Under the pieces are notes generated by a model that ran no database searches, was not told the origin of the DNA, and worked only from the letters and a program-made list of their open reading frames with translations. A DNA stretch of 4,740 nt. It comes from a virus. Taxonomy: Duplodnaviria; Heunggongvirae; Uroviricota; Caudoviricetes. Of the stretch, positions 1 to 4,740 are shown piece after piece. Every line of letters begins with the position of its first letter. Positions within the stretch are counted from its first letter, which is position 1. The stretch lies in the IMG/VR virus record IMGVR_UViG_2671180283_000007; one strand, given 5' to 3'. Position numbers and translations under genes: made by a program.

Positions 1-25
1 CTTGTTCACTCATTCTGAATGCCAT
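1..25 (-). CDS. tfa: Tail fibre assembly protein Tfa, 5' end only (first 8 codons MAFRMSEQ); continues beyond the window
   Basis: Minus-strand ATG at 23..25 overlaps the stf stop TAA (25..27) as TAATG. The 8 codons readable to the window edge (MAFRMSEQ) match the N-terminus of lambda-family Tfa as I recall it, and the position immediately 3' of stf is the canonical tfa location. Only 25 nt are visible. Confidence 0.55.
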
Positions 26-3000
26 TATGCAAGCCTCACAATATAGTTAAATGCGATGTTTTTGACGGTGTTTTCCGCGTTACCCACAGCGTTAACGGTG
101 ATGGTGTGTCCATGTGAACCAATCGCAACGGAGTGCGTATGAGCACCAATACCGACAGTATGCGCGTGTGCACCTGCAGATGCTGCTGTGCCGGACAGTG
201 AGTGGCTATGATTACCATCTGTACTGGTATTAGCTAACCACCCCGTAGACATACCTACTGAGCCTTGTACACCCCAGGTATTTTGACCTGAGCTTGTATA
301 ACCATATTGATAAGTATCTTTAAAAACACTGGGGTTAAATCGACGGCCATCTCTATGGCTGTGATTACCAGCTGCATTCGTGCTGCCACTTAAACTATGA
401 GTATGCGCACCAGTGTTATTCGTGGATTTAGTGCCGTAATCAAACGATGATGTGGTTTTCGTACCCAAATCCGTACTGGATACGCTGGCGCTGTGGGTGT
501 GCGATTTAATGCCGTCCTGTTCCTGAGACAATACGGCACGACCACTGGCGGGCTTGCCCTTAATCGTCCAGCCACGCATATCAGGGATCACGCCTGACGG
601 ATAAGCGGCCGCAAGTTTCGGGTAAGCAGATTTGTCAAAAGTCTGCCCCTGCATCAGGGCATAACCAGACGGAACGGTATCTGATGGCCACGGGATTGGT
701 GCGCCGACTGGGTAGCTTTCTGGTGGAAGATTTTTCGAGGTATAAACTTCTGCCCAGTCTTCCTCAAAACCATAACCGTCTCTTGAAGAACGGTAGAACA
801 GACCACGATTTATGTAATGCGCCTTCATCTGCAAGGTCCGGCAACTTCCGACTCCGGTATAGAAGTTAACCAGAATATAGCTGTCGCCAGAGCGGGTGAC
901 ATTATAAGCGCCTGATTCGGCATTCCAGGGAACGCCACCATCCGCATCGGCATATGTATCCGTTGCCCTTCTGGCAAAAGCAGCCACATGCGCGGCGGTT
1001 AAAGTAATATCTTTGGAACCATCAAACTCAACACCAGAAACCCGTCTTGGCGTTTGCAGCTTTGTTGCTGTCAATGCGTTACCGTTCAGACTTGCAGACA
1101 GCTTGGTTCCAATAACCAGTTCGCCGGTTGCGTTATCAATAGCAAACGGTCTTAATGTATTCCATCCACCATAAACATCACCTTGATTGGTAAGCAGCAG
1201 GTAAGTTTTAGCGCCATCATTACGCCATAATGCCCCATACTCCCCACCTATCATTCGAATCTGATTACCACCACGCGCTACAATTTCGTCTGTGGCAAAA
1301 AGTTTTTTGCACGACAAGTTATCGTTAACGATTAACGAATGGGACTCATAAAAACCACGCCCATTCTTAAAATCAAGGATAACGTCCGCCGCGATACATT
1401 CAGTCGCCGGATTTGTTGCCCCAAACTTATAGGTCGTATCATTAACAACGAGATCAGCACCAGGTGCGGATATTGACAGGCCATCTTCGATAAACGCAAA
1501 AACAGGGAAAGCAGCGCCATCAACATAGAACACAGAGCGCAAATCATCGCCCTTATTACTCATCATTATTGAGTGGATGGCTCGTTCATTGTTTTGATAT
1601 TGCCAGAACATTCCATAAGCATAACGCCCCCTGTCAGTCCAGCCACCAGGCATAACAAATCCGTTAAACTCGCAGTTATTCATCGGATCGCCTGCGGTTC
1701 GCGTTGCCGTGGTGATAATGACCCTTGATGCCAGTTCGCTTACTGAGCCAGCAGAACGCATAACAACAACAGGATAATATTTTCCAGATGTTGCACCTGC
1801 AGGAGCGTTAACCCGCACATAACGCATACCACGCTTATCAGCAAAGTCTGTTTTACTGACCGCGTTAATGTTGTTCAGGAAGCGTCCCTTATCGGGTATA
1901 TCAGCGCCGTTCTGGTCTTTCTGCAGACGTTTCTCTGCATTGTCATAGGCTGCTTTTACTGCCTTTGGCGTTGCCGCCAGCGTTTCAGACGTGCTGTTGG
2001 TCGCGCTGCTGAGCTGTACTATCCCCTTTTTCGTCGTACTTGCATCCTCAAGCGCCACGGCGGATGCAATATCCTCTGCCCGTTTAGCTGCTGTCTCGGC
2101 GCGCGTTGCCGCGGATTCCGCCGTACTTTTGCTCTGAGCTGCCGCCGTCGCACTGCCAGCTGCCTCTGTCGCCTTCGTGGATGCCGTCGTGGCGCTGCTC
2201 TTCGCTGCTGACGCCTGTCTGGTCGCCTCATCTTTTGAAGCAGACGCAGATGATGCCGATGACGCCGCCGAACTGGCGGACGATGCGGCAGCCGTTTTTG
2301 AGGATTCTGCGCTGGTTTCCGACGCTTTCGCGTTCGTTTCGGATGTCTTCGCTGCGGAAGCAGACCTCGCTGCTGCGCTGGCCTGTTCAGTGGCTTCGCC
2401 AGCCTTCGTTGTGGCTGTTGAAGCAGACGATGCGGCGCTTTCTGCCGATTTTCCGGCGGCGGTGGCACTGGCTGAGGCCTGCCCGGCACTTGTTGACGCT
2501 GCACTGGCAGACGACGCAGCCGCTGTTTTTGAGCCTGCCGCAGCCGAGGCGCTCTGTCCCGCTGCCGTTTCAGAAGACCTGGCGTTCGTCTCTGACGTTT
2601 TTGCCGCCTTCGCGGAATTTGCTGTCGCCGTTGCCGAGGAAGCTGCGCTGCTGGCGCTCGAGGCTGCGCTCGTTTCTGATGATTTTGCCGCCTCTTTTGA
2701 AGCTGACGCATCCCGGGCTGAGGTGGCAGCTTCTGACGCTTTCGTGGTCGCGGTGGATGCAGAAGTGGCTGCTGATTGTTGTGACGCTGCCGCATTCGTT
2801 TCTGACGTTTTCGCGGCACTGGCACTGGTAGCTGCCGCGCTTTTTGAGGACTCTGCAGCAGCAGCACTTTTCGATGCTTCAGTGGCCTTTGTTGATGCCG
2901 TTCCTGCGCTGGAAGACGCTGACTGAGCCGACGAAGCGGCCTGTCCGGCTGACGTGCTGGCTGCGCGTGCTGAGCCTGCAGCATCAGTCGCATGGGTTGC

Positions 3001-3423
3001 CGCCTCACGGGCAGATGTGCCGGCATCGCCGGCTGACTTCTTCGCGGCTGCCGTGTTCTGTGCCACTGCGGACGCGTTACGCGCCACCTCTTCCACCATC
3101 AGTTCAAAACGGCGCAGTGCCTCTGGCCGGACATCATCCTCCGTCATTGCACCGAGGAAATCATTCAGTGTGCCCGGCTTTGAGTCCTCATATACGGTGA
3201 TAATCCCGGCGTGTGACGGCGGGAATCCCTCCACCAACAGACTGACGCTGTACTGACCATACTCGACGTCCATTGTGTAACGCCCGGCTTCATCCGGGTT
3301 TTCTGAGGCCACTGTGTTCACCACCACCGTGGTGCTGTTGCGCCTGGCCTTTAGCTGAATGGTGCAGTTTTGTATCGGCTTACCTGCGCCATCTTTCAGT
3401 ACACCTGAAATCCGTACTGCCAT
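25..3423 (-). CDS. stf: Side tail fibre protein, lambda Stf family, 1132 aa, intact and mosaic
   Basis: Single uninterrupted 1132-codon ORF in the track. The N-terminus ([36 protein letters not shown]...) and the C-terminal ~226 aa (GAPIPWPSD...[39 protein letters not shown]) resemble lambda Stf as I recall it. Context is lom upstream and tfa downstream on the same strand. ATG at 3421..3423 is preceded by a G-rich Shine-Dalgarno sequence. Confidence 0.93.
28..705 (-). other. Stf C-terminal tip module (aa 907-1132), lambda-type, with His-rich HxH repeats; predicted receptor-binding region
   Basis: Begins at GAPIPWPSD (codon G907 at 703..705, checked by hand). Contains SHTHS, GAHTHS, GNHSH (twice), [27 protein letters not shown]. 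HxH repeats of this kind coordinate metal ions in trimeric fibre tips such as T4 gp37 (established knowledge); assignment here is by analogy. Confidence 0.6.
706..1953 (-). other. Stf central module (aa 491-906) that differs from the lambda-type fibre; visibly more AT-rich DNA than the flanking stf segments
   Basis: Protein composition switches from an Ala/Ser/Thr shaft to an aromatic/Asn/Gly-rich block with several Cys (e.g. [38 protein letters not shown]). The DNA in roughly 1100-1700 is clearly AT-richer by eye than 2100-2900. Contains [30 protein letters not shown], reminiscent of a motif shared among P2/Mu/T-even-type fibres (from memory). Module boundaries are approximate. Confidence 0.5.
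2075..3065 (-). repeat. Ala/Ser/Thr-rich low-complexity shaft of Stf (aa ~120-450) with three imperfect 70-84-aa repeats
   Basis: AAKTSETNA recurs at aa 203-211, 273-281 and 357-365. The corresponding plus-strand DNA (cgttcgtttcggatgtcttcgc ~2330-2355, cgttcgtctctgacgtttttgc ~2585-2607, cattcgtttctgacgttttcgc ~2795-2817) is visibly repeated. This GC-rich, codon-biased stretch is what produces long stop-free ORFs in the other frames. Confidence 0.65.
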
Positions 3424-3426
3424 ATT

Positions 3427-3432
3427 CCCCCC
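3427..3432 (-). promoter_or_regulatory. Probable Shine-Dalgarno sequence of stf (GGGGGG on the minus strand)
   Basis: Minus strand reads GTGGGGGGAAT-ATG; the G-run ends 3 nt upstream of the stf ATG at 3421..3423. Confidence 0.4.
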
Positions 3433-3434
3433 AC

Positions 3435-3460
3435 AAAAAAGCCCGCCTGAACCGGCGGGC
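3435..3460 (-). terminator. Rho-independent terminator downstream of lom (minus-strand orientation)
   Basis: Perfect 7-bp all-GC stem (plus 3441-3447 gcccgcc pairs with 3454-3460 ggcgggc), 6-nt loop tgaacc, followed on the minus strand by TTTTTT (plus 3435-3440 aaaaaa). It lies 28 nt 3' of the lom stop and ends about 12 nt before the stf ATG. Confidence 0.7.
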
Positions 3461-3487
3461 TGTCATAACACTGTGTTACCTGGCTAA

Positions 3488-4087
3488 TCAGAATTTATAA
3501 CCGACACCAACGATGAAACTGTTGGTACGCCAGTCACCGCTGCCGGAGCCTTCATAAGCGACGTCAACGGCCACGGATTCGGTCGGGTTAAACTGCACGC
3601 CAGCTCCCCACGCCAGAGACGTGTTGCTGTGGCGACCGTCATCACTTCCGGTCAGCACATCGTGCGTTTTCCCCTTGTTGTCAGTTACGCGGATATAATC
3701 CCCGGAGAAAGTCGACACACGGCTGTAAGCCATACCCGCCATCGCATACGCGCTGAACCATTCATTCACGCGCACAGACGGCCCCGCCATCACGCTGAAC
3801 CAGCGATTACGCACGGAATCCTCATGCCAGCGGGTATCGCTGTAATGCGTTTTTTGCTCATCTTCAGCGTTGGCATAACTGAATGACGTAATCAGCCCCA
3901 GCGTGTCCGTAAACTCATAACGGTATTTCACGTTAATCCCGTTCAGATTATCGCTGCCGGGAGCGTTCGTACGGGCATGAAGATACCCTGCGCTCAGTGT
4001 GGCCTGCTGCTCAGACGCCCATGCAGGCGCACCGGATACGGCCAGACAGATGGCTGCGGACAAAATGGCTGCACAAACTTTACGCAT
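3488..4087 (-). CDS. lom: Lom outer-membrane protein (Ail/Lom/PagC/OmpX 8-stranded beta-barrel family), 199 aa, intact
   Basis: ORF begins MRKVCAAILSAAICLAVSGAPAWA/SEQQ, a typical Sec signal peptide with an AxA cleavage motif, and ends with the C-terminal aromatic residue (...VGVGYKF) expected of a beta-barrel. Overall it resembles lambda Lom as I recall it. It sits between J and stf as in lambda, with a GAGAGGT Shine-Dalgarno 4 nt upstream of the ATG. Confidence 0.9.
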   Translation of the reverse strand: MRKVCAAILSAAICLAVSGAPAWASEQQATLSAGYLHARTNAPGSDNLNGINVKYRYEFTDTLGLITSFSYANAEDEQKTHYSDTRWHEDSVRNRWFSVMAGPSVRVNEWFSAYAMAGMAYSRVSTFSGDYIRVTDNKGKTHDVLTGSDDGRHSNTSLAWGAGVQFNPTESVAVDVAYEGSGSGDWRTNSFIVGVGYKF

Positions 4088-4091
4088 AATT

Positions 4092-4098
4092 ACCTCTC
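4092..4098 (-). promoter_or_regulatory. Shine-Dalgarno sequence of lom (GAGAGGT on the minus strand)
   Basis: Minus strand reads GAGAGGT-AATT-ATG, with the ATG at 4085..4087. Confidence 0.55.
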
Positions 4099-4111
4099 GC
4101 TTTTCTGCAAT

Positions 4112-4135
4112 AAAAAAGGCGCCATTTCTGGCGCC
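4112..4135 (-). terminator. Rho-independent terminator between the J-like ORF and lom (minus-strand orientation)
   Basis: 7-bp stem (plus 4118-4124 ggcgcca pairs with 4129-4135 tggcgcc), 4-nt loop tttc, followed on the minus strand by TTTTTT (plus 4112-4117) then ATT. It starts 20 nt 3' of the J-like stop (4155..4157). Confidence 0.7.
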
Positions 4136-4154
4136 CGTATATGGGTTATAAAAT

Positions 4155-4691
4155 TCAGCTGATACTGATGCCTGCGGTGGCTTTCTTCATCACCACAACC
4201 AGCAAATCGCTGATACTTGCTGTGGGATACCAGTCATTTACCAGCCATGCTGACACCGAAAACTCCAGCGTCATGTGGCCGTGACCAGCTGGCATATCAA
4301 TAACACCACTGTAAATCAGCGTATTATCCAGCGCGGTACGGTTATAAATTTCAGCACCATTTTTCTTCACTATCAGGCGGCATGAGGAGTAAATATCAGT
4401 ATGCTCTCTCTCATGTTTAGCACCGCTGAATGCCACCGCCGGAATAACAATCTGCCGGTCAAACGGCTGATCGTCATAAATCCTGACGGTAATGGTCCCT
4501 GATGGCCACCGCTCCGGTGCCCGGGAGTCCCGCGGGAAAGCCTTACCCACTGTTTTGACAATATCGCCTTCAATCTGGTTGGCTGACAGTTTCCCTTTAA
4601 TCTGACAGTTCTCATTTATCGTAACGTTGTTGAGCGTCCCGGAGTTCGCAGTAAGCGACTCGTCAGAACCGTATTGATATTTACTGAGAGC
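4155..4691 (-). CDS. J: C-terminal portion of a lambda J-like tail-tip host-specificity protein; 5' boundary unresolved (in-frame TGA at ~4692..4694, no ATG in frame)
   Basis: The track ORF 4155..4550 is in a frame that my hand translation keeps open upstream to 4691 ([62 protein letters not shown]...[10 protein letters not shown]). It ends 67 nt upstream of lom on the same strand, exactly where the 3' end of J lies in lambda. Identity as J is from context plus general resemblance and is not verified by alignment. Confidence 0.7.
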
Positions 4692-4740
4692 TCAGATCAA
4701 CTTTCCAGGGCAACAGATCGCGTACCCGGTTTGCCGGCCA

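Follow-up and report, generated by a model that had tools for sequence, protein, structure and literature searches.

Insertion sequences (IS) of the IS66 family usually have inverted repeats that start with GTAAGCG (PMC12888890), and ISCro1 is a known member of this family in E. coli (PMC8764528). In the full ISCro1-type copies that we read in other genomes, the genes tnpA, tnpB and tnpC are contained in an element of 2699 bp that is bordered by 8-bp target duplications. On the phage side the reference is gpJ, the tip attachment protein of phage lambda, with its Ig_GpJ_C receptor-binding domain and, downstream of the gene, lom, a side tail fibre gene and tfa. Prophage tail genes inactivated by IS elements are common in E. 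coli. The two systems meet in E. coli Z1322HEC0005 (NZ_CP148578; locus L001) and in the 5.04-Mb assemblies GCA_045611025, GCA_045610945 and GCA_045611045 (loci L006-L008), where an ISCro1-type element splits the J gene of a prophage just upstream of the receptor-binding domain. The window analysed here, a stretch of 4740 bp, resembles all of these. It shares with the ISCro1-type elements their terminal 90 bases, the GTAAGCG repeat and the C-terminus of TnpC, but holds this end of the element only; it shares with phage lambda the receptor-binding domain and the genes downstream, but its J is interrupted, the intact relative having 1159 codons. With Z1322HEC0005 and its three companions it has in common the IS, the orientation of the IS and a prophage that differs little (22 mismatches over 4636 bases), whereas their junction lies 14 bp nearer to the J stop and the target is GTTGAGCG instead of AGTTCGCA. 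The insertion site, codon 995 of J, was found in no other genome searched. Very probably, the window records the transposition of an ISCro1-type IS66-family element into J of a lambdoid E. coli prophage, where the element interrupts codon 995 of 1159 and points the same way as J.

Window and contig CYDQ01000077.1 coincide over their full 4740 bp (E. coli draft assembly GCA_001283605.2), and there is therefore no upstream extension on this record. Its genes are all on the minus strand and follow the order J, lom, side tail fibre gene (stf), tfa, as in the prophages of Z1322HEC0005 and of E. coli 13KWH46 (locus L002). The 3' remnant of J (4155..4650) runs from the third base of codon 995 through codons 996-1159 to the stop TGA (4155..4157) and takes in the whole receptor-binding domain. 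Downstream of it, lom (3488..4087), for an Ail/Lom outer-membrane protein, is intact and matches the Pfam family Ail_Lom over its full length (E = 1.4e-125). According to the ORF calls and to the gene order of the two prophages just named, the side tail fibre gene (25..3423) is likewise intact and encodes 1132 aa; the same figure had been quoted for lambda J in the first-pass annotation. At the left contig edge only the first 25 bases of tfa (MAFRMSEQ...) are present, their ATG (23..25) overlapping the tail fibre stop TAA (25..27).

The point where J ends is the same in every comparison. In a megablast search of 4100..4740 against 5426 complete E. coli genomes, many matches of 100% identity were obtained, all of them ending at query base 551, which is window position 4650. 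Alignment with the intact J of 13KWH46 (1159 codons) gave identity up to 4650, inside codon 995, and unrelated sequence after it. At the protein level, residues 31-194 of the minus-strand frame from 4739 correspond to J residues 996-1159 with 164 of 164 identical, the junction codon is altered (T replaces N995), and residues 1-27, on both sides of the in-frame TGA discussed below, have no similarity to the intact 1159-aa J. Ig_GpJ_C (PF12421) is matched in the remnant over its complete profile, positions 1-135 of 135, with E = 1.7e-38. In Stx-converting phages and in phage PhiR55_1, J shows 95-97% identity to the remnant. The intact relative carries six J domains in one frame (FNIII-A, Phage-tail_3, Ig_J, Ig_J_second, Phage_Tail_Tip and Ig_GpJ_C); the window has only residues 996-1159 of such a protein, cut off by the IS.

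From 4651 on, the sequence belongs to the IS. The 90 bases at 4651..4740 (minus strand) are identical, 90 out of 90, to the IS ends of three full copies that lie in unrelated contexts: in J of Z1322HEC0005, in ykfM of TUM1880 (locus L003) and in a P4-like island of O26:H11 strain 11368 (locus L004). Each of these copies measures 2699 bp, starts with GTAAGCG and ends in ...CGGTTAC, and each is directly abutted by 8-bp direct target duplications: GTTGAGCG, TTTCGCCA and TATTCGCG, respectively. The IS ends were set by comparing the four independent insertion sites: in the alignment of the window with the three copies, the common sequence begins at GTAAGCGACTCG... (window 4651) and the flanks differ. 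Some IS matches seemed to extend back to 4645, and these additional bases were rejected as IS sequence, similar target sites (TTCGCx) being present in other genomes. The motif GTAAGCG, with which IS66-family terminal repeats begin, stands at 4651..4657, exactly where the J identity stops. The automatic repeat finder reported no IS terminal repeats; the two ends of the element are imperfect copies of each other. Of the protein-coding part the window retains the last 19 codons of tnpC with its stop TAA at 4681..4683 (4681..4740, minus strand), and their translation is the C-terminus of the 523-aa transposase of Z1322HEC0005, in which the Pfam domains LZ_Tnp_IS66, zf-IS66, DDE_Tnp_IS66 (E = 2.5e-103) and DDE_Tnp_IS66_C are recognized. 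All three genes, tnpC for the DDE transposase of the IS66 type and tnpA and tnpB for accessory proteins, are present in the full copies elsewhere; the remainder of this one is off the contig. Evidently, 4651..4740 is the tnpC-side terminus of an ISCro1-type IS66-family element.

The element is a frequent one: the last 96 bases of the window were matched in 2064 of the 5426 complete E. coli genomes, often in many copies per genome, and matching copies are annotated as 'IS66-like element ISCro1 family transposase'. The name ISCro1 as used here is this PGAP family label on identical copies, whereas the ISfinder naming rule demands at least 95% nucleotide identity to the ISCro1 reference. For one ISCro1 copy in ST131 a length of 2824 bp is reported (PMC8764528) against the 2699 bp between the target duplications of our three full copies, and given this difference the PGAP 'ISCro1 family' label may cover more than one element.

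By a simple insertion the IS, 2699 bp in its full copies, would have entered codon 995 and parted J domains 1-5 from the C-terminal receptor-binding domain. By analogy with Z1322HEC0005 this would have duplicated the 8-bp target AGTTCGCA at both IS ends; the copy at 4643..4650 is the predicted target site, deduced from the 8-bp duplications that abut the element in Z1322HEC0005, TUM1880 and strain 11368. The upstream part of J would then end a few codons into the IS, with a predicted C-terminus ...SVNANCNRLI followed by a stop. The far junction predicted for such an insertion reads, on the plus strand, ...GAGCCGGTTAC joined to AGTTCGCATTCACACTG, in which the other IS end is followed by the second copy of the 8 bp and then by the remaining J sequence; a contig end on that side, with the other IS end joined to J, should accordingly read ...GGTTTAAATGAGCCGGTTAC joined to AGTTCGCATTCACACTGCC on the plus strand, and an uninterrupted J would instead give ...TTCGCATTCACAC at the junction. 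The end of the J similarity, the identity of the IS end, the C-terminus of tnpC and the coincidence of window and contig are direct observations. One IS-J junction is on the contig, and the second copy of AGTTCGCA and the 5' part of J lie off it; going by the Z1322HEC0005 case, we infer that J resumes beyond the IS, as in a simple insertion that has duplicated 8 bp. With the C-terminal receptor-binding domain severed from the rest of J, the prophage is probably unable to make a working tail tip from this copy. The first-pass annotation had suggested a defective prophage without functional tail tip, which as far as the J gene goes is a fair deduction; the cause is to be sought in the IS insertion rather than in the codon to which it was ascribed.

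A second way to arrive at the same sequence would be a deletion or rearrangement mediated by the IS, in the course of which the 5' part of J would have been lost or displaced, possibly together with more of the prophage, so that the window would show a remnant and not a simple insertion. IS elements often cause deletions of adjoining DNA, and, the window being the whole contig, just one junction is visible. Moreover, an exact look-up of the two J N-terminal proteins that are predicted for a simple insertion (J residues 1-997 followed by CNRLI, derived from 13KWH46 and from Z1322HEC0005) returned none, although a difference of one residue suffices to miss such a protein. Against this stands the closely similar case in Z1322HEC0005 and loci L006-L008, where the insertion is simple, 8 bp are duplicated and both halves of J are present. 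Against it stands also the close agreement with an intact prophage: window 1..4650 differs from it at only 10 bases, none after 1364 (99.8% identity over 4650 bases), which suggests that the insertion is recent. On balance we regard a deletion or rearrangement as quite unlikely.

A further alternative would place the event in the computer: a chimeric contig end that joins J to the IS, while the isolate itself would have a whole J. Among the sequences searched, only this draft contig has the junction, and it does end in a repeat, as might be expected of an artefact. The IS part of the join, however, sets in precisely with base 1 of the terminal repeat (GTAAGCG), as it does in transposition and as it would not in a random chimera, and to write it at all the assembler needs k-mers that span the junction. 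Since the join is so placed, we take a chimeric end to be extremely unlikely. That J is continuous and that position 4692..4694 has suffered a nonsense mutation or a wrong base call, both of which the first-pass annotation had entertained and for which nothing speaks but the TGA in that frame, is refuted beyond practically any doubt by three facts: the J similarity is over at 4650 and not at the TGA, the 90-base stretch in which the TGA lies has 100% identity to three independent IS copies at unrelated sites, and the true frame around it is that of tnpC.

Transposition into J being the preferred reading, the TGA itself needs few words. It is indeed the 16th codon of the minus-strand frame that starts at 4739 (plus 4692..4694), and from there the frame is open to the TGA at 4155..4157; translation also bears out the description of a second minus-strand frame, from 4740, that ends with TAA at 4681..4683. 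What does not hold is that the TGA interrupts J: the J similarity stops 42 bases short of it, and the 14 residues that had been taken for J are out-of-frame IS DNA. The alignment check that had been proposed, for J homology continuing across the TGA in the same frame, was run with the intact 1159-aa J and gave none beyond 4650; the refuting outcome named with it, a sense codon in a J that continues in frame, does not apply. As the IS end is identical at unrelated sites, each with target duplications of its own, the TGA is nothing but a triplet of the IS that the J frame happens to meet; on the minus strand it falls within the 90-base IS end, is out of frame with tnpC, and is the codon of no gene. 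It has no significance of its own, because about 1.4 stops are expected by chance in some 30 codons of unrelated out-of-frame DNA. Neither a J mutation nor a sequencing error should be recorded for this seeming nonsense codon. Two other proposals of the first-pass annotation were closer to the mark. The proposed junction with unrelated DNA, by deletion or recombination, was in essence correct and can now be given precisely as J joined to an ISCro1-type terminal inverted repeat; the different upstream ORF that was thought to end at 4681..4683 is the IS66 transposase TnpC. The main value of the analysis is one of correction: biologically, the locus is one more IS-inactivated prophage tail gene, and an IS-disrupted prophage gene is an ordinary, already-known kind of finding.

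The insertion in Z1322HEC0005 splits J 14 bp nearer to the stop, with both J halves present and GTTGAGCG duplicated. The same junction is found in loci L006-L008 and in two short contigs (L013 and L014), amounting to at least six assemblies; it lies at L001:6530-6547, L006-L008:9905-9922, L013:111-128 and L014:50-67, and its target corresponds to about 4629..4636 of the window. The insertion in the window is an event separate from this one, because the window retains 14 more bases of the 3' part of J and thus cannot derive from the Z1322HEC0005-type insertion by deletion. The target sites compared are AGTTCGCA (predicted; window 4643-4650), GTTGAGCG (L001:6530-6537), TTTCGCCA (L003:3500-3507) and TATTCGCG (L004:3499-3506); TTCGC occurs in three of the four, a sample too small for claiming a target preference. 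One could imagine that J codons of about 995-1000, just upstream of the receptor-binding domain, are a preferred target of ISCro1-type elements, and that IS copies there could serve as portable homology for the swapping of receptor-binding modules (the 3' end of J, lom and the tail fibre gene) between prophages. This idea, which we think unlikely, is based on two insertions that are separated by 14 bp and point the same way, and on TTCGC in three of four sites, which is anecdotal at this sample size.

Beyond the window's own contig, the junction was found neither in GTDB representative genomes, searched with patterns of 29 and 20 bases, nor in JGI metagenome contigs, nor with a 70-base junction-spanning query in the 5426 complete E. 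coli genomes. It is equally absent from all other fetched loci, among them the further contigs with the identical 131-aa ORF described below. This exact junction rests on one assembly, GCA_001283605.2, which is filed under two sample records. The contig ends 90 bases into the multi-copy IS on one side and 25 bases into tfa on the other, and the first 130 bases of the window are present in up to six copies per genome in some strains, which places both contig ends in DNA that E. coli genomes repeat. Short-read contigs commonly end at repeats. The contig presumably stops at 4740 as short-read assembly breaks in a multi-copy IS; the contig edge is to be seen as a repeat boundary, and that the sequence stops at 4740 is without biological meaning.

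Within the J remnant, gene callers predict a GTG-initiated ORF of 131 aa (CTX23552.1; 4155..4550, minus strand). Its GTG, at 4548..4550, is the first start-type codon past the TGA, as had been stated. The accompanying remark that there is no in-frame ATG needs amendment: ATG codons occur in frame at 4293..4295, 4272..4274 and 4188..4190, and the stretch from the TGA to the GTG is free of them. No Shine-Dalgarno-like motif precedes the GTG (bases TTGTCAAAACA). A promoter scan of 4050..4740 gave no minus-strand promoter-like site at the junction, and hence there is no evidence of the IS driving the remnant. The counterpart of the 131-aa fragment in Z1322HEC0005 is annotated as a pseudogene, and the annotation of the fragment in the window should be that of a pseudogene remnant adjoining an IS66-family element. 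Where the identical 131-aa ORF appears in other assemblies, it goes with the Z1322HEC0005-type IS junction, a 1-base deletion, a duplication at an N-gap or a short contig end. In loci L009 and L010 (9790-10010 in each) it stems from a duplication around an N, a scaffolding artefact, and in locus L012 (1-149) from a 1-base deletion in J.

Two further features were noted in the remainder of the window. Between the J stop (4155) and the start of lom (4087), at 4117-4136 on the minus strand, there is a G+C-rich hairpin of eight pairs that is followed by TTTTTATT; it is a terminator-like site that would separate J from lom. An ORF of 245 aa was called at 1815-2552 (coordinates of locus L005), on the strand opposite to the tail fibre gene and across its alanine/serine-rich repeats. 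It has no Pfam match and is most likely spurious, a product of the biased composition of the repeats.
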